From contig JBGFRX010000005.1 of the NCBI GenBank assembly GCA_041694885.1, forward strand, positions 5,291 through 69,290: DNA of 64,000 nt, in the 5' to 3' direction. The notes below the pieces were generated by a model that had not been told where the DNA came from, did not search any database, and was given only the letters and a program-made list of their open reading frames with translations. The translations under genes were made by a program, and so were the position numbers. Of the stretch, positions 3,326-61,322 are shown piece by piece (position 1 is the stretch's first letter; each line of letters starts with the position of its first letter). The DNA comes from Candidatus Micrarchaeota archaeon. GTDB taxonomy: Archaea > Micrarchaeota > Micrarchaeia > Anstonellales > Bilamarchaeaceae.

Positions 3326-4633
3326 TTGATGAAGCAGTTTGGAGAAAAAATATCCCTTATAGTGCCTGCAATAATAATAGGGCTTTTCGTCTTCCTTTTC
3401 ATCTCAATAGTTAGAACGAGCATATTTGGCCAGGTGGAAGGGGAAAAACATTTGTTTTTCGAAATAAGCTTCCTTCTCCTGCTTGCGATGGCCGCTGAGC
3501 TTGCAGTCGTTTACCTTAAACAGCCCTCCGTGGTTCTGCTTCTCTTAATAGGCGTTCTCCTCAGCTCGAGTTTTGTGGAGAGCGTGTGGCCCGCGCTTTC
3601 GCAGACAGTGCCTCTCTTCCCAAAAACCATTCCGAATTTCGTGACAGATGAAAAACTCATTCATGTGTTTGGGCAGCTTGGAGCTATTTTCATACTTCTC
3701 AAGGTAGGGCTGGATGTCAAATTCGGGAAAATATTCAATATAGAGAACGGCGTGGTTGGGCTGCTCGGGGTGGTAATCCCGTTTGTTGCCGGCTATCTCT
3801 ACGCAACGCTCACTGGCGGAAATATTATCTATGGAATGTTCTTGGGCGCAGCGCTCGTTGCCACGAGCATAGGAATCACGGCCGCGCTCCTGAGGGAATA
3901 CGGCCTTCTGAATACGCGGCTTGCGGAGGTGATTCTGGGCGCTGCTATCATAGATGACGTGCTGGGGCTTCTTGTGCTCTCCTTTGTGTCGGTATTTTCA
4001 GGTGGTTCTGCAGATGTTTTTTTGCTTGCTCCTGTGATTTTCAACACCGTGATATTCCTTACAGGAGGGGTGCTCGCAGGAAAATATTTCGTGAGGAAGT
4101 TCGTGGATGCGAACGCTATGGATTCAAAGAATCTGCTTGTGGTTCTTTCCTTTGCGTTCGTTTATTCATACATTTCAGAGTACATCGGACTTTCGAGCAT
4201 AGTGGGCGCATTTCTGGCAGGCATAATACTCAACTCGAGCAAGCACAGGGCTGAAATAGACAAGAAGACGAGCGGAATAGAATTGATTTTTGCGCCCATG
4301 TTCTTTATCTCGCTCGGAATGCTGGTGGATGTTGGCGCGCTAGGAGAATTTTTGGTTCCGATCATAGCAATCACTGTGATTGCGATTGCGAGCAAATTGA
4401 TCGGGTGCGGCCTGGGAGGACTTGCGATTGGACTGAAACAGACTGAAAGCGCTGCGGTTGGGATAGGCATGGCACCCCGGGGGGAAGTGGCACTCATCGT
4501 AGGGCTTATAGGGCTCACGAAGGGAGCACTTGATTCGGAACAATATACGATAATAGCTGCAATGGCTTTCCTTACTGCATTCCTGGTGCCTTTTCTTATG
4601 CAGCCGCTTTTGAGAAAAATTAAGCGTGATTGA
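3326..4633 (+). CDS. Cation:proton (Na+/H+) antiporter, CPA superfamily membrane protein
   Basis: About 12 predicted TM helices. Glycine-rich membrane segments typical of NhaP/KefB-type exchangers. Confidence 0.65.
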   Translation: MMKQFGEKISLIVPAIIIGLFVFLFISIVRTSIFGQVEGEKHLFFEISFLLLLAMAAELAVVYLKQPSVVLLLLIGVLLSSSFVESVWPALSQTVPLFPKTIPNFVTDEKLIHVFGQLGAIFILLKVGLDVKFGKIFNIENGVVGLLGVVIPFVAGYLYATLTGGNIIYGMFLGAALVATSIGITAALLREYGLLNTRLAEVILGAAIIDDVLGLLVLSFVSVFSGGSADVFLLAPVIFNTVIFLTGGVLAGKYFVRKFVDANAMDSKNLLVVLSFAFVYSYISEYIGLSSIVGAFLAGIILNSSKHRAEIDKKTSGIELIFAPMFFISLGMLVDVGALGEFLVPIIAITVIAIASKLIGCGLGGLAIGLKQTESAAVGIGMAPRGEVALIVGLIGLTKGALDSEQYTIIAAMAFLTAFLVPFLMQPLLRKIKRD

Positions 4634-4736: not shown

Positions 4737-4835
4737 GCTCCCATAGTCTAGGCCGGTCAAGGACATCGGACTCTCAATCCTGCCAAAAGCAGGAAGGGAA
4801 CTCCGAGAACTCGAGTTCAAATCTCGATGGGAGCG
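4737..4835 (+). tRNA. tRNA-Glu(CUC) carrying a 24-25 nt intron at the canonical 37/38 position of the anticodon loop
   Basis: Acceptor stem GCTCCCA/TGGGAGC + G73. D stem GTCT/GGAC. Anticodon stem TCGGA/TCCGA with loop CTCTCAA interrupted by 'tcctgccaaaagcaggaagggaa(c)', which contains the hairpin cctgc-caaaa-gcagg. T arm TCGAG-TTCAAAT-CTCGA. Upstream T-rich TATA-like 'tttattatt' at about -32; downstream T tract. Confidence 0.65.
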
Positions 4836-19750: not shown

Positions 19751-19825
19751 AGCGGGATAGGGTAGCTTGGAGTACCCGCCGGGCTCATAACCCGGAGACC
19801 GTTGGTTCAAATCCACCTCCCGCTA
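19751..19825 (+). tRNA. tRNA-Met(CAU), initiator type
   Basis: A1:U72 acceptor pair (AGCGGGA/TCCCGCT + A73). D stem GGGT/ACCC. Anticodon stem CCGGG/CCCGG with three consecutive G-C pairs and loop CTCATAA. T loop GGTTCAAATCC. There is one U-C mismatch in the T stem. Confidence 0.8.
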
Positions 19826-54674: not shown

Positions 54675-55703
54675 ATGAGCGTGGACATAGGTGACCTTGT
54701 TCCGAGGCATCCCACGACGCTGGAGAAGCTCGGCGGAAAGATAATCGCGTTCGACGCATTCAATGTAATCTACCAGTTCCTCGCATCGATAAGACAGGAG
54801 GACGGCACGCCCTTAATGGATTTCAAGGGGCGGCCCACAGGCCATCTTTCCGGCCTTTTCTACCGCAACGCACGCCTCATGGAGAATGGAGTAAAGCCGG
54901 TTTATGTCTTCGACGGCGAGCCGCCTGAATTCAAGAAAAAAGAAATAGAGAGAAGGAAGGAAGCGAAGAAGGAGGCAGAGGCGAAATGGAAGGAGGCGCT
55001 CGATTACGAACGTTTTGAGGATGCAAAGAAGTTCGCGCAGGCAACCTCGAAGCTCACCCCCGAAATGGTAGAGGAATCGAAGGAACTGCTTTCAGCACTC
55101 GGCATCCCCTGCGTGCAGGCGCCGAGTGAGGGCGAGGCGCAGGCAGCCTACATGGTGAAGAAGGACATCGCGTACGCATCCGCCTCGCAGGACTACGACT
55201 CCATACTCTTCGCTTCCCCGCGCCTTATCCGCAACCTTTCCATAACCGGAAAAAGGAAGGTGCCGAGGCAGAACCGCTACGTGCTCGTGGAGCCGGAAGA
55301 AATAATTTACGAAGAAGTACTTTCCTCTCTTGGAATAAGCCGCGAGCAGCTAATCCTTATAGGACTCCTCTGCGGCACCGACTTCAACAAAGGGGTGAAG
55401 GGCGTTGGCCCGAAGACAGCGCTCAAGATAGTGAAAGAGAACAAAACCCCTTCCGAAATCAAAAAATACATCAAGGCGAAATACGATTACGGGTTGGAAG
55501 AGGAAATTTTCGAATTCTTCCTCAATCCACCTGCAATGGATTTGGGAAAAATCAGATCCGGAAGCCCGAATGTGGAAATGGTGCGCAAAATTCTGGTGGA
55601 GGGGCACGATTTCTCGGACGAAAGGGTTGACAGGGTGCTTTCCGGGCTGGAAAAGATCATGAAAGAAAAAAGTGCGCAGAAGAAGATCGAAAATTGGTTC
55701 TAA
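54675..55703 (+). CDS. fen: Flap endonuclease 1
   Basis: XPG N and I domains, 'GIPCVQAPSEGEAQAAYM', and a C-terminal PCNA-interacting tail '...QKKIENWF'. Confidence 0.9.
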   Translation: MSVDIGDLVPRHPTTLEKLGGKIIAFDAFNVIYQFLASIRQEDGTPLMDFKGRPTGHLSGLFYRNARLMENGVKPVYVFDGEPPEFKKKEIERRKEAKKEAEAKWKEALDYERFEDAKKFAQATSKLTPEMVEESKELLSALGIPCVQAPSEGEAQAAYMVKKDIAYASASQDYDSILFASPRLIRNLSITGKRKVPRQNRYVLVEPEEIIYEEVLSSLGISREQLILIGLLCGTDFNKGVKGVGPKTALKIVKENKTPSEIKKYIKAKYDYGLEEEIFEFFLNPPAMDLGKIRSGSPNVEMVRKILVEGHDFSDERVDRVLSGLEKIMKEKSAQKKIENWF

Positions 55704-56461
55704 ATCCTGAAGAATTTCCTGGCTACTTTCACTGCGCCGTGCACTCCCAACATCGTCGGCCTTGCTTCGCCGCATATTTTCCCGTTCCTTAGGGCATTTA
55801 GCAATTCCTTCGGATTTTCGACATCAAATTCCTTCATTTCTATCCAGCATCTTCCGAATTCAAACAAAAGATGAGCGTCGCTTCCAGCGCCTTTCAGCTT
55901 CCTGTTTCTTTCGGCGAATTCGAGTGCATTTGCATTGCATTCCTTTGTGCAGTGGCCGTTCAGCACCTCCACCACATCGACCTTCTTCGCCAATTTTTCA
56001 TCGGAAACACCATGCCTTCTCGCATCATACATGTGCGGAAGGTAGGAAATAGCACCCTGATCCTTTAGCTGGTCCAGTGTTTCAAGGAAGTCCAGCTTGT
56101 CCGGGATCAGTTCGTTCAGGTAAAGCCCTATAAGATCGCCCTGCAGCGTCTTCATTTCCTCCCCAGCTATAAACCTAAAGCCCATTTTCCGCAGCTCTGC
56201 ATGTGATTTGATGTTCCCGTGATCAGTTATCGCAGGAATTATGCCAAACTCCTTCGCCTTCGCAAAAATCTCCCTAAAGCCACAGAGCGAATCAGGAGAA
56301 TAATTTGTGTGCACATGCAGGTCTATCTTCATGCAAATTCCTTTTCTTTTTGAGGTGAATAACTTGGATGTTGTGCTGAGGCGGTTAGTTCGTCTTAGGT
56401 ATTGCGTGACATTTGACTCAGCGGGGTAAACCCTTGCATCCTTGGCGATTGGCAGCGGCAT
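55700..56461 (-). CDS. PHP-domain phosphoesterase. The likely true start is the Met at about 56332 ('MKIDLHVHTNYS').
   Basis: PHP motif 'DLHVHTNYSPDS' and later 'HP..D'. The 43 upstream codons of the tracked ORF run through a structured non-coding-looking region. Confidence 0.65.
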   Translation of the reverse strand: MPLPIAKDARVYPAESNVTQYLRRTNRLSTTSKLFTSKRKGICMKIDLHVHTNYSPDSLCGFREIFAKAKEFGIIPAITDHGNIKSHAELRKMGFRFIAGEEMKTLQGDLIGLYLNELIPDKLDFLETLDQLKDQGAISYLPHMYDARRHGVSDEKLAKKVDVVEVLNGHCTKECNANALEFAERNRKLKGAGSDAHLLFEFGRCWIEMKEFDVENPKELLNALRNGKICGEARPTMLGVHGAVKVARKFFRI

Positions 56462-56661
56462 TTCATCTTCTTTTCAACAGCTCCCTTCTTCATCGCGAAA
56501 GTTGAAAGAAGTTTTTTTTCTGTATCGCTGCCAGGCCCCTTAAAGGCCCTTTATCTAGGATGGACGGAACTTCCTCACCCAAACCGGTTTCCCCCTTCCA
56601 GTTCCGAAACGGAAAACCCGAAAGAGGAAACTTCTGTGGGCGTAGCCACTCCGCCTCAGCA
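56369..56661. ncRNA. Candidate structured RNA of about 290 nt, closed by a 10-11 bp terminal helix; class and strand unassigned
   Basis: 'tgctgaggcgg' (56366-56376) pairs with 'ccgcctcagca' (56651-56661). Internal helices: ggcagcg...cgctgcc enclosing cttcttttcaac/gttgaaagaag, and ttccg-aaa-cggaa. It sits in a 435-nt gene-free gap. Confidence 0.35.
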
Positions 56662-56767
56662 AAAATAATTGCTCTTTTCGCCTTTATATAATGCGCAGTC
56701 GTTCTGGTACGAATTCAGGATTTCCTCATCCCAGCGAGTTCGCAGATTAAGACATTTTTCAGCGAAT

Positions 56768-57256
56768 CTATCTGATTTTATAATGAGCGATTATTCCCCG
56801 CGCCCGTGCAACTGTCCTGAACATGTTTTTCCAGTGGCCCCCTTTCCAGTATATTTTCCCGCATTTTCTGCATATCCAGAATTTCCTTTTTCTTCTATAT
56901 ACGTCAGGCGGGGCTTCGGTTCTGGAGACTTTCCCCGCGATTTGAAAGGTGCCGTTGCATTTCGGGCAGCGGGTGTTTTTTGGGAAAGTTATTTTGTAAC
57001 TATAGTTACAAAAGACCTGTGCAATCTGCTCCCCTATGTCAACGGAGTTGATGAGCAAAAATTCCGCCTTCCTTTTCCTAAGAGAGGGAAGCATTTTCGC
57101 ATCGCGGGTAAGAAGGACGAGGTTGTGCCTTTTGACGTACGAGATTATGCGCGAATCCGGCTTTCCCCTCGAATAATCGTATTCGCAGTAAACGCCGAGT
57201 ATGCGCAGCCATTCCGCCAATTTTTTCAGCATCGCATCAGCAAGGAACTTTTGCAT
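56768..57256 (-). CDS. Mut7-C RNAse domain protein (PIN-like plus C-terminal zinc ribbon; DUF82)
   Basis: 'MLKKLAEWLRILGVYCEYD' N-terminus; 'CPKCNG...CRKCGKIYWKGGHW' zinc ribbon. Confidence 0.65.
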   Translation of the reverse strand: MQKFLADAMLKKLAEWLRILGVYCEYDYSRGKPDSRIISYVKRHNLVLLTRDAKMLPSLRKRKAEFLLINSVDIGEQIAQVFCNYSYKITFPKNTRCPKCNGTFQIAGKVSRTEAPPDVYRRKRKFWICRKCGKIYWKGGHWKNMFRTVARARGIIAHYKIR

Positions 57257-59157: not shown

Positions 59158-59829
59158 GTGGCTAATCAGTTCCCGGTTTCGCGTCTCCAGTCTTGTGCTG
59201 GAAACCGGAGACCGAATACTGATATGCTGAACGGAAAAATGGCGTTAAGTCGAAACTGGAGACCGGAAACGGCCAACGGCCCAGCGAGACGCTCATGGGT
59301 GAATAAAATGGGTGCATACAAATACATACAGCAAAACCTCGAAAAGGAATACAGCGAAAGGAACGAACTCTATAGGCAGAAAGTAATCGGCTGGAAGAGG
59401 GGAAACGCGATAGAAAGGACTGAATACCCATCGAATCTTCCACGTGCGCGGGCCTTGGGATACAAAGCGAAAAATGGCTTTGTTGTCGTGAGGGTGCGCA
59501 TAGAGAAGGGAAGGAGGAAGAGGCAGAAGACGTGGGGCGGAAGGAAGCCAAGGCACAATTACCGATTTGTGCAGCCGCAGCTCTCGCACCAGGCAATGGC
59601 TGAGCAGAGAGCGAACAGGGTTTACAAAAACCTCGAGGTCCTCAACTCCTACTGGGTGGGCGAGGACGGGAACTATAAGTTCTTCGAGATAATAATGGCT
59701 GATCCGGTATTGGTTAAGGACCTTGCCGCAATAAGGGCTAAAGGAAGGGCTTTCCGCGGTCTTACTTCGCAGGGAAGAAAAGCAAGGGGCTTGCGGGCAA
59801 CGGGCAACCGGATGCAGAGGGGCTCCTAG
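59158..59829 (+). CDS. rpl15e: 50S ribosomal protein L15e. The likely start is the internal Met at about 59308 ('MGAYKYIQQ').
   Basis: 'KYIQQNLEKEY...GYKAKNGFVVVRVRIEKGRRKRQ...RFVQPQ' L15e signatures. Confidence 0.85.
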   Translation: MANQFPVSRLQSCAGNRRPNTDMLNGKMALSRNWRPETANGPARRSWVNKMGAYKYIQQNLEKEYSERNELYRQKVIGWKRGNAIERTEYPSNLPRARALGYKAKNGFVVVRVRIEKGRRKRQKTWGGRKPRHNYRFVQPQLSHQAMAEQRANRVYKNLEVLNSYWVGEDGNYKFFEIIMADPVLVKDLAAIRAKGRAFRGLTSQGRKARGLRATGNRMQRGS

Positions 59830-59913: not shown

Positions 59914-60375
59914 ATGTACGACATAATACGGGCGCGCAATATCGCGCCCGAACCCTTTCATTTTGCCAAACTCTATTTTCTGGACGAAGTTAAAGGCAGG
60001 ATAAGCAAACTACCGAATCTGGACGAAGCGATGAAAATGAAGAACAAAAAGGGGCTCATCCTTCTGGACAAATACAGTGAGGACATAGGGCTCATGAAGA
60101 AATTTGCTGAAAAAAGCTCCGCTGCATTCCTCATTGATTTGGGACGGCTTATTGAAACGAACGGGTTCGGCCGCGCTGTGGAAATGGCGAAGATGCGCCG
60201 CTTTCTCCGCACGTGCGTAAAATACGATATCCCCTTTGCGCTCGCTTCATTTGCAAAGGACGAATTTTCCATAAGGAATGCGAAGGAGCTCTGCCACATC
60301 GCCACTTTGGCAGGGTTGAACGTGGGGCAGGCGAAGTTCGGGTTGGAGAGATTGAGGGGCTATCTGGAGCATTAA
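59914..60375 (+). CDS. rnp3: Probable RNase P protein subunit Rpp30 (Rnp3), unusually short (153 aa versus about 210-240 aa typical)
   Basis: C-terminal 'KYDIPFALASFAKDEFSIRNAKELCHIATLAGLNVGQAKFGL' resembles the Rpp30 TIM-barrel C-terminus. The position directly after rpl15e matches the archaeal exosome/RNase P superoperon order. Confidence 0.4.
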   Translation: MYDIIRARNIAPEPFHFAKLYFLDEVKGRISKLPNLDEAMKMKNKKGLILLDKYSEDIGLMKKFAEKSSAAFLIDLGRLIETNGFGRAVEMAKMRRFLRTCVKYDIPFALASFAKDEFSIRNAKELCHIATLAGLNVGQAKFGLERLRGYLEH

Positions 60376-60461: not shown

Positions 60462-61322
60462 TTAGCGCAGGGTTGCTCCAGTAATCATCCTGTAAGCCAT
60501 GAGGTACCTTTCCGAGGTCTTATCCACGATTTCCTCTGACAAAGATGGTGCAGGCGGCTCCTTGTTCCATCCGCTTTTTTCCAGATAGTCGCGCAGGAAC
60601 TGCTTGTCCATGCTTTCCAGAATTCCCTTATCGTACTGCTCCTTGAGCCAGTAGCGCGAGGAATCAGGGGTAAGCGCTTCGTCCACCAGAATTATCTCGT
60701 CGCCTACTTTTCCGAATTCGAATTTCGTGTCTGCAAGCACTAGCCCTCTTGGAAGGAGATATTCGTGCGCGAATTTGTAAAGCGCTATCGCCTTCTGCTT
60801 TATGTAATCAACATCTTCTTTTCCGAACATCCGCTCTGCCTCTTCCACGCTGATGTTAATGTCGTGTCCTGTTTCCGCCTTTGTGGAAGGGGTAAACACC
60901 GGCTCCGGCAGGCGGGAGCCGTTCTTGAGCCCCCCAGGCAGCTTTATTCCGGCGAGAGTTCCCTTTTCCCTGTACTCCTTCCAACCGCTCCCTGTCAGGT
61001 AGCCGCGCACCACTGCTTCCATCCGGATCACGTTCGCGCTTTTTGCGATCATCGCGCGGCCATCCATCGCCTTCAGTTCCCCGGGCATCGCATCCGTTAT
61101 GAAATGATTTTCAATTATGTGCTCCGTTTTCCTGAACCAGAATGCGGAGAGTTTGTTGAGTACTTCCCCTTTTTTCGGGATCCCCTCTTTGAAAACTGAA
61201 TCAAAAGCGCTTACCCTGTCCGTTGAGATTATCAAACGGTTTCCTTTGTATTCGTAGGTGTCGCGCACCTTGCCCCTGTGCAGGAATTTGTGCTTTAATT
61301 CGGTATGAGTTATCGTATCCAT
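60462..61322 (-). CDS. purC: Phosphoribosylaminoimidazole-succinocarboxamide synthase (SAICAR synthetase, long form)
   Basis: 'GKVRDTY', 'ISTDRVSAFD', 'LVDEALTPDSSRYW' motifs. Confidence 0.85.
   Translation of the reverse strand: MDTITHTELKHKFLHRGKVRDTYEYKGNRLIISTDRVSAFDSVFKEGIPKKGEVLNKLSAFWFRKTEHIIENHFITDAMPGELKAMDGRAMIAKSANVIRMEAVVRGYLTGSGWKEYREKGTLAGIKLPGGLKNGSRLPEPVFTPSTKAETGHDINISVEEAERMFGKEDVDYIKQKAIALYKFAHEYLLPRGLVLADTKFEFGKVGDEIILVDEALTPDSSRYWLKEQYDKGILESMDKQFLRDYLEKSGWNKEPPAPSLSEEIVDKTSERYLMAYRMITGATLR

Follow-up and report, generated by a model that had tools for sequence, protein, structure and literature searches.

Here we present evidence that positions 56661 to 56374 of the minus strand, within a 64,000-nucleotide stretch of contig JBGFRX010000005.1 from a Candidatus Micrarchaeota archaeon (assembly GCA_041694885.1; the whole stretch is referred to below as the window), very probably encode the RNA subunit of RNase P of this DPANN archaeon. 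RNase P RNA is a universal ribozyme that trims the front ends of tRNAs, and a copy is expected in DPANN organisms. The region had been singled out in a preliminary description, made from the letters alone, as a candidate structured RNA of about 290 nt that resembled either RNase P RNA or the RNA of the signal recognition particle (SRP). The first resemblance proved apt, with an RNA of 288 nt whose closing helix is P1, while the second is unsupported. Full-text literature searches, of incomplete coverage, turned up no account of a Micrarchaeota RNase P RNA. The proposed gene is as follows.

56374-56661, minus strand: RNase P RNA gene, 288 nt, bounded by the two strands of P1 and including them; assigned from RF00373, homologues and covariation.

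Match to the archaeal RNase P RNA family

A search against Rfam in E-value mode returned the model RF00373 (RNaseP_arch), matched on the minus strand over model positions 1-288 with E = 1.3e-7 and 32.7 bits; for the related RNase P families of the same Rfam clan the best match alone was kept, and this was RF00373. The same model was matched by all eight full-length relatives tested, with E-values from 2e-3 to 9e-20. The five conserved regions (CR) of the family are all read on the minus strand, as GAGGAAGUUCCGUCC (CR-I), AUACAGAAA (CR-II), GAUGAAAUG (CR-III), AGUCAAAUG (CR-IV) and ACCUAAGACGAACUAA (CR-V), and across ten distinct sequences, those of the window and nine relatives, they occur in order and nearly invariant as GAGGAAGUUCCG, AUACAGAAA, GAUGAAA, AGUCAAAU and AAGRCGRACUAACC. 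In RNase P, P4 together with CR-I, CR-IV and CR-V makes up the metal-binding active centre, and CR-II and CR-III, which lie at the junction of P10/11 with P12, recognise the elbow of the tRNA. The preliminary description had quoted the plus strand and had been unable to match the diagnostic motifs of either candidate RNA; its gene lies instead on the minus strand, where every RNase P motif is present, and the motifs had been missed because they read correctly only there.

An SRP (7S) RNA, or another known structured RNA of like size, would share with this element a comparable length and a closed terminal helix. However, RNase P is the sole significant family, and a scan of 56200-56900 with Rfam found no SRP family at E <= 10 on either strand, so that we assign this possibility a practically negligible probability. 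The other Rfam matches were C/D-box sRNAs at E >= 1 only, and these reflect the GAUGA K-turn-like motif of P12.

Conserved secondary structure and covariation

Relatives of the RNA were reached via the PHP-domain protein encoded beside it, at 80 Micrarchaeota genome loci and seven further contigs. Nine distinct full-length homologues were obtained (loci L001, L003, L005, L081, L082, L083, L084, L087 and L088). Three further loci were left out: L086, which is cut at a contig end and looks rearranged, L085, which is near-identical to L084, and L089, which is identical to the window. Once lineage-specific hairpins are removed, the core measures 230-239 nt in every member. For the alignment, the ten cores were split by hand into helices and junctions and run through MAFFT with N padding to hold the register; a plain MAFFT alignment (A3) had misaligned P7, P12 and part of P3 and was replaced by this hand-segmented one. 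The elements of the RNA, in order from its 5' end but with the strands of long-range helices given separately, are these.

56651-56661, minus strand: P1 5' strand, UGCUGAGGCGG, pairing with 56374-56384; 11 pairs, 7 with two-sided changes, 100% paired.
56645-56649, minus strand: P2 5' strand, GUGGC, pairing with GUCAC at 56406-56410 and crossing P4 as a pseudoknot; 4 of 5 pairs change on both sides.
56576-56642, minus strand: P3, with a covarying base helix CGCCCA/UGGGUG (56637-56642/56576-56581) and an extension at 56582-56636.
56563-56575, minus strand: CR-I, comprising J3/4 AGGA and the P4 5' strand AGUUCCGUC; aligns with GAGGAAAgUCC of RF00373.
56437-56562, minus strand: P5-bounded region with the specificity domain, containing P5 CAUCC/GGAUG, P7 GAU/AUC, P9 GGCC/GGCC with loop UUUAAGG, P10/11 GGCAGCG/CGCUGCC, CR-II AUACAGAAA, P12 with a K-turn-like GC-GAU-GA...GA-GC, and CR-III AUGAAAUG.
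56411-56436, minus strand: J5/15 CAA, the P15 hairpin GGG-UUUAC-CCC and J15/2 with CR-IV GCUGAGUCAAAU; in the alignment 4 of 4 pairs of the P15 helix change on both sides.
56387-56405, minus strand: CR-V, comprising J2/4 GCAAUACCUAA and the P4 3' strand GACGAACU; aligns with ACAGAAGGgGGcUUA of RF00373.

The helix set is thus P1, P2, P3, P4, P5, P7, P9, P10/11, P12 and P15. In the curated alignment of the ten distinct sequences, the 60 proposed pairs of these 10 helices give 571 cells, 99.6% of which hold standard pairs; the two unpaired cells fall in L087 and L084. Compensatory, two-sided changes occur at 36 of the 60 pairs (89 cells), and none of 500 shuffles reached any of five covariation measures. 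When the 3' partners were slid by 1-3 columns, pairing fell to 36-47%. Outside P4, two-sided changes affect 35 of 52 pairs, and pairing stands at 98-100% in every helix, including helices 5-9, those of the region 56437-56562, with 3, 3, 1, 5 and 5 two-sided pairs. The exchanges can involve whole helices: P2 appears as GUGGC/GUCAC, CCGGC/GCCGG, GGGAU/AUCCC, AGGGC/GCCCU, CUGGC/GCCAG and GGGGC/GCCCC, P7 as GAU/AUC, GGC/GCC and UGC/GCA, P10/11 as GGCAGCG/CGCUGCC, GGAAACC/GGUUUCC and GGCCGCG/CGCGGCC, and P15 as GGG/CCC, GAU/AUC, GAG/CUC and AACC/GGUU. The helices are anchored by junctions made of conserved sequence. Among the checks suggested in the preliminary description were an Rfam search of both strands and a survey of covariation in related intergenic regions; the former matched the RNase P model RF00373 on the minus strand and the latter found the pairing kept, with compensatory changes, in nine relatives.

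P4 joins CR-I with CR-V in eight pairs with one bulged nucleotide, and crosses P2. It shows one two-sided pair (C-G/U-A/U.G), and CR-I is invariant in all ten sequences save for one Y position. The data fit two registers of this helix, with either a bulged C or a bulged U. In the bulged-C register P4 is 100% paired, a G-to-A change at 56390 that is unique to the window turning a U.G pair into U-A.

The loop of P9, UUUAAGG (56538-56544, minus strand), is near-invariant in the ten RNAs, with the variants UCUAAGG and UUCAAGG, and the stem beneath it covaries. This pattern suggests a tertiary or protein contact that would replace the usual tetraloop.

Strand and fold statistics

The helices listed in the preliminary description can all be located. 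The 11-bp terminal helix tgctgaggcgg/ccgcctcagca lies at 56374-56384/56651-56661, with 266 nt between its arms, and can be lengthened to 14 nt at 93% complementarity; ggcagcg/cgctgcc lies at 56451-56457/56526-56532, cttcttttcaac/gttgaaagaag at 56467-56478/56501-56511, and the hairpin ttccg-aaa-cggaa at 56603-56613. Listed alone, such helices prove little because inverted repeats of this kind arise by chance in the 435 nt of the intergenic gap, where one of 7-8 nt is the chance expectation. A poly-U stretch noted at the same time exists as T8 on the plus strand (56513-56520), but the strand in use reads A8, the A-run that follows CR-II. The G/C-rich blocks that had been remarked upon are likewise present, but they are nothing unusual, being the ordinary RNase P elements P9 and P10/11 read on the wrong strand.

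The minus-strand fold of the gap has a free energy of -109.9 kcal/mol (z = -3.6, with none of 100 shuffles as good), and the plus-strand fold is weaker (z = -2.5). Without constraints, minimum-free-energy folding of the minus strand independently finds P1, P3, P4, P5, P9, P10/11 and P12. In the alignment, G.U pairs fill 39 of the 571 cells, and on the opposite strand these would become A.C mismatches. Because the motifs, the G.U pairs and the TATA box described below all fit the minus strand, we take this to be the strand of the RNA; the plus strand was rejected as the functional one, with its weaker fold, its lack of the conserved motifs and the A.C mismatches in place of G.U.

Points that weigh against the identification

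The following weigh against the assignment to RNase P. The gathering cut-off of RF00373 is 84 bits, and the window (32.7 bits) and its relatives (24.4-76.8 bits) all fall below it; at gathering thresholds, Rfam reported just two tRNAs over the whole window and missed the RNase P RNA. The pair counts given above come from a hand-curated, structure-aware alignment from which insertions had been excised and are therefore biased upward, a bias that the slid controls and the sequence-anchored junctions limit but do not remove. In the canonical register of P4, with a bulged U, 98.8% of cells are paired, nine sequences being perfect and the window carrying a C.A. Only one of five expected protein subunits was found in the 64-kb window, and that one weakly. 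The ends of the mature RNA were placed from P1, and a second, more canonical RNase P RNA may lie outside the 64 kb viewed.

As to the scores, the two lowest belong to L084 (24.4 bits) and then to the window, the two RNAs with a P3 insertion, while insertion-free relatives reach 58-77 bits. The shortfall tracks the insertions together with the missing P8 and P16/17: it is the threshold that fails, not the fold.

Some of these features would also suit a pseudogene, an RNase P RNA in decay while a working copy or a protein-only enzyme for the same task is encoded elsewhere in the genome. The window has the second lowest Rfam score of its family (32.7 bits), the G-to-A change in the P4 3' strand creates the C.A mismatch of the canonical register, and an insertion of 55 nt sits within P3. 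However, the P3 insertion explains the low score, the likewise inserted L084 standing at 24.4 bits, and the alternative register of P4 keeps the pairing, with the change from G to A turning U.G into U-A. The row of the window has standard pairs at all 60 positions, the nucleotides of the conserved regions and the TATA box are all intact, and a second assembly (GCA_041695005.1) holds an identical copy. Furthermore, HARP, a protein-only RNase P, has been reported as absent from every DPANN genome examined (PMC6380272). We consider a pseudogene quite unlikely on these grounds, and retain the reading of a functional RNase P RNA.

Genomic context and coding potential

The surroundings of the RNA gene in the window are as follows.

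56333-56767: gap of 435 nt, free of any supported open reading frame (ORF) and flanked by two minus-strand genes.
55700-56332, minus strand: PHP/PHP_C-domain gene, 210 aa, with Pfam PF02811 and PF13263; same orientation as the RNA and 41 nt 3' of it.
56768-57256, minus strand: Mut7-C gene, whose end at 56768 bounds the gap.
56683-56692, minus strand: TATA box AUUAUAUAAA, seen in the sequence, with its centre about 27 nt before P1 begins.

The sole long ORF that enters the gap is a 253-aa version of the PHP protein starting at 56461, and a product of 253 aa is recorded in the public annotation of the identical contig JBGFRQ010000108.1 (L089; assembly GCA_041695005.1). On this basis the region could be read as coding for an N-terminal extension of the PHP protein. 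However, the closest homologues of the protein have 210 aa and the others mostly 208-240 aa, and in an alignment of 30 sequences they start at MKIDxHxHT; translation thus starts from the ATG of 56332-56330, which leaves the gap non-coding. In addition, the DNA upstream of this ATG varies as an RNA does, with compensatory changes of pairs and hairpin insertions of 23-55 nt at shifting sites, and such insertions would not be tolerated by a reading frame. A coding extension is thus exceedingly improbable, and the 253-aa start is a mis-call in the public annotation as judged from these comparisons. The extra 43 codons of that call (56333-56461, minus strand) lie over the 3' third of the gene for RNase P RNA. 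The claim in the preliminary description of a 435-nt gap without a credible ORF is borne out by the PHP start and the Mut7-C end, and its own caveat, that the PHP gene might really begin at 56461, falls with the 210-aa homologues and the mis-called start.

The RNA lies directly upstream of the PHP gene and on the same strand in all nine relatives. It is present at three of the 80 genome loci fetched (L001, L003 and L005). A scan of 14 of the remaining, more distant Micrarchaeota loci with Rfam in E-value mode found no RNase P RNA near the PHP gene, and since these loci have the PHP gene without the RNA nearby, the linkage is clade-specific. In a metagenome collection, a CR-IV/CR-V pattern of 22 specified bases gave no matches, and 19 loci obtained with a CR-I...CR-II pattern were dismissed as chance matches, none being an RNase P RNA by nhmmer or Rfam; the clade of this RNA appears to be absent from the collection scanned.

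The gene upstream of the RNA varies, being Mut7-C in the window and ThiF in most relatives where it is visible, with none called in L088. Three relatives, L083 (~1305-1500), L084 (1167-1364) and L085 (489-686), have a small ORF in the interval from the RNA to the PHP gene, and the window is without it; the calls in L084 and L085 give this ORF 65 aa, and it has no Pfam match in either.

Probable promoter and possible relationship to the PHP transcript

The spacing of about 27 nt between the TATA box and P1 is normal for archaeal promoters, and a TATA box of the form (U)AUAUAAA or GGUAUAAAAG is found 25-30 nt upstream of P1 in all nine relatives. The box is therefore likely to be the promoter of the RNA gene. 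Transcription would proceed from this promoter, starting at or beside the first nucleotide of P1.

The spacer between the 3' end of the RNA and the PHP start is 41 nt in the window (56333-56373, minus strand) and 21-48 nt across several loci that include L001, L081, L082 and L088. A U-tract terminator is absent from it, and an SD-like motif, GUGA or AAGGA, stands before the PHP ATG. The RNase P RNA and the mRNA of the PHP protein, a TrpH-like phosphoesterase or nuclease, may share one transcript.

Such an arrangement raises the alternative that the element belongs to the PHP mRNA, as a structured 5' leader or a cis-acting regulator, with no independent RNA gene. Its orientation is that of the PHP gene, the distance is short (41 nt here, 21-48 nt in several relatives), and the absence of an oligo-U terminator together with the SD-like GUGA/AAGGA before the ATG suggests a shared transcript. 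A leader does not, however, account for a complete RNase P core with the family-specific conserved regions, and co-transcription with PHP is compatible with an identity as RNase P RNA. It should also be noted that the 14 distant Micrarchaeota loci have PHP without the RNA, so that the PHP gene does not need it. A leader that is not RNase P RNA is accordingly very improbable.

Comparison with known RNase P RNAs

In the window RNA, P8 is absent, with only AAAG (4 nt) between P7 and P9, as are L15, P16, P17 and P6; P15 amounts to three base pairs closed by a 5-nt loop, and directly after it comes a 12-nt J15/2 that contains CR-IV. The archaeal types M and A are defined apart by the loss in type M of P8 and of L15/P16/P17/P6 (PMC3001054). 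The closest likeness is thus to type M, known from Methanocaldococcus jannaschii and Methanococcus maripaludis (RF00373 covers types A and M), with which the window RNA shares the helix inventory, the same two losses and CR-I to CR-V. Type A RNAs, such as those of Pyrococcus and Methanothermobacter, agree with it in the universal core, in the P7/P9/P10 junction and P12, and in all five conserved regions, but they have P8, the P15-L15-P16-P17 arm and the P6 pseudoknot, none of which is found in the window RNA.

P12 adds a further point of likeness. L7Ae binds the P12 region of type A and type M RNAs, in type M at a double K-turn with two copies of L7Ae (PMC5499556), and the window RNA has a GA-type K-turn-like motif at this place. 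A K-turn-like unit (GC, a 3-nt bulge, GA ... GA, GC) is found in P12 of all ten sequences, with AA-GC in L005. Only one such unit is evident in P12 of the window, against the double K-turn described for type M, and a second, overlapping one could not be drawn.

Other features set the window RNA apart from type M. Its host belongs to the Micrarchaeota (DPANN), whereas type M RNAs come from Methanococcales. In its clade P4 reads AGUUCCGYC/GRCGRACU against the consensus AAGUCC/GGCUU, and the loop of P9 is the near-invariant 7-nt UUUAAGG instead of a tetraloop; the 55-nt P3 extension and the sub-cut-off Rfam scores are additional differences. Since the host is not methanococcal, and since sister RNAs keep P8-like hairpins (L081, L087 and L088) and hairpins after P15 (L003, L005 and L087), the type-M-like state looks like a recent and independent reduction, so that the RNA would be type M by layout and not by descent.

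Two other reduced forms, both from lineages whose RNA processing is streamlined, deserve mention. The type T RNA of Thermoproteaceae (RF02357) is likewise reduced, but its specificity domain is abbreviated, while that of the window RNA is complete save for P8; membership in type T was rejected, as P7, P9, P10/11, P12, CR-II and CR-III are all present and covarying. The RNase P RNA of the nanoarchaeon Nst1 is reported to be smaller, and Pop5 was not found there (PMC4919917); it resembles the window RNA, by description, in being reduced.

Taken together, the window RNA is a fresh member of the RNase P family, its variant features being a convergent type-M layout, modular hairpin insertions and sub-threshold scores.

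Insertions and lineage-specific hairpins

The 55-nt extension of P3 (56582-56636) comprises a 5x5 internal loop, a 12-bp helix and a short tip hairpin, and folds with -34.4 kcal/mol (z = -4.0). It is shared by none of the relatives, seven of which have a loop of 3-5 nt at this place while L084 and L085 have a different insertion at the same spot, and it is a lineage-specific peripheral decoration outside the core. The P3 of eukaryotic nuclear RNase P and MRP has a layout of helix, internal loop and helix. The P3 of the window, with its helix, symmetric 5x5 loop and long helix, resembles this layout, but the form is confined to the lineage of the window and carries no sign of homology or of a protein partner.

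The tip of the extension, CGGAACU (56600-56606), is complementary to AGUUCCG of the P4 5' strand (56565-56571, minus strand) and so mimics the P4 3' strand. If real, this complementarity could compete with the formation of P4. By chance alone, 435 nt should contain about six 7-mers of this kind, and the match was judged to be fortuitous.

Relatives carry insertions of their own. A module of about 50 nt with two hairpins, GUUGAACGGCARCGUYCAACAGACRGCCGCCGAUUCGUCGGCGGGYGGA, is seen in P3 of L084 (~880-932) and in P12 of L083 (~1155-1204), and the observation also extends to L081, L086 and L088. Its tip motif CGAUUCGUC occurs eight times in insertions of RNase P RNAs and twice elsewhere among 88 loci. 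Judged by its placement, the module behaves like a hairpin unit that moves between helices. The window contains neither the module nor the motif CGATTCGTC, which is typical of the insertions of relatives.

Between P7 and P9, hairpins are present in L081 (~1245-1300), L087 (~975-1015) and L088 (~1195-1295), among them a P8-like, GNRA-capped AAAACC-GNRA-GGUUUU and an extra hairpin. Between P15 and CR-IV, two GNRA-capped or long hairpins are found in L003 (~925-975), L005 (~3655-3700) and L087 (~1145-1195), at a site comparable to the one that P18 occupies in bacteria. Members of the clade differ in precisely those elements by which type A and type M are told apart.

Probable function, candidate protein partners and tRNAs

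Together with protein subunits, the RNA would remove the 5' leaders of pre-tRNAs. P1-P3 and the long-range helix P4, formed by CR-I and CR-V, would build the catalytic centre, and P5, P7, P9, P10/11 and P12 with CR-II and CR-III would make up a specificity domain that recognises the tRNA elbow. Without L15, the RNA probably cannot pair with the 3'-CCA (3'-RCCA) end of tRNA. By analogy with type M it probably leans strongly on its proteins and is probably inactive without Pop5-Rpp30 (PMC3001054). Candidate partners are a short Rpp30 homologue, whose gene lies at a distance of 3.3 kb, and probably L7Ae, which would bind the K-turn-like motif of P12. The genes concerned are these.

4737-4835, plus strand: tRNA gene with a 26-nt intron just after the anticodon loop.
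19751-19825, plus strand: tRNA gene.
59914-60375, plus strand: Rpp30-like ORF of 153 aa, directly after the L15e gene (59308-59829, plus strand).

Neither of the two tRNA genes of the window encodes 3'-CCA, which fits the lack of L15.

The 153-aa ORF matched Pfam PF01876 with E = 1.4e-4, under the cut-off, and the NCBIfam Rpp30 equivalogs with E = 8e-8. Its matches in the PDB were exclusively Rpp30 chains (E 0.007), and a profile of its family matched 6k0a_C, chain C of the M. jannaschii holoenzyme, with E = 6.8e-5. The matches cover only the C-terminal half of Rpp30. Among 15 homologues, most have 149-153 aa and four have 123-134 aa, and six carry a precomputed PF01876 assignment; solved Rpp30 proteins have 212-236 aa, so that the 153-aa family is about two thirds of the normal length. 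From these comparisons the ORF appears to encode a shortened but conserved form of Rpp30 (RNase P protein component 3), a putative partner of the RNA.

No other RNase P subunit, whether Pop5, Rpp21, Rpp29 or L7Ae, was found among the 14 ORFs of the window put through Pfam, and the 153-aa ORF is not followed by a Pop5 gene, the next being a minus-strand ORF at 60462-61322. By eye, the product of this last ORF resembles SAICAR synthase.

Implications

The known function of RNase P is unchanged by these findings. What they reveal is an essential gene that goes unannotated because Rfam scores fall under the gathering cut-off throughout its clade, and a clade-specific covariance model would correct the annotation of Micrarchaeota in this respect. 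They also indicate that the type-M layout is not confined to Methanococcales and can arise again in a streamlined DPANN lineage. Close relatives with intermediate forms provide a natural series for asking which elements of the RNA can be replaced by proteins, and the shortened Rpp30 points the same way.

We further put forward, tentatively and as a proposal that is less likely than not, that the clade possesses a distinct class of RNase P. This would combine an RNA that reached the type-M form independently, with relatives in intermediate states, modular UUCG- or GNRA-capped hairpins lodged in different helices in each lineage, co-transcription with PHP and an Rpp30 of about 150 aa. If this is true, the holoenzyme would amount to an archaeal RNase P minimised in nature, distinct from both type M and type T.

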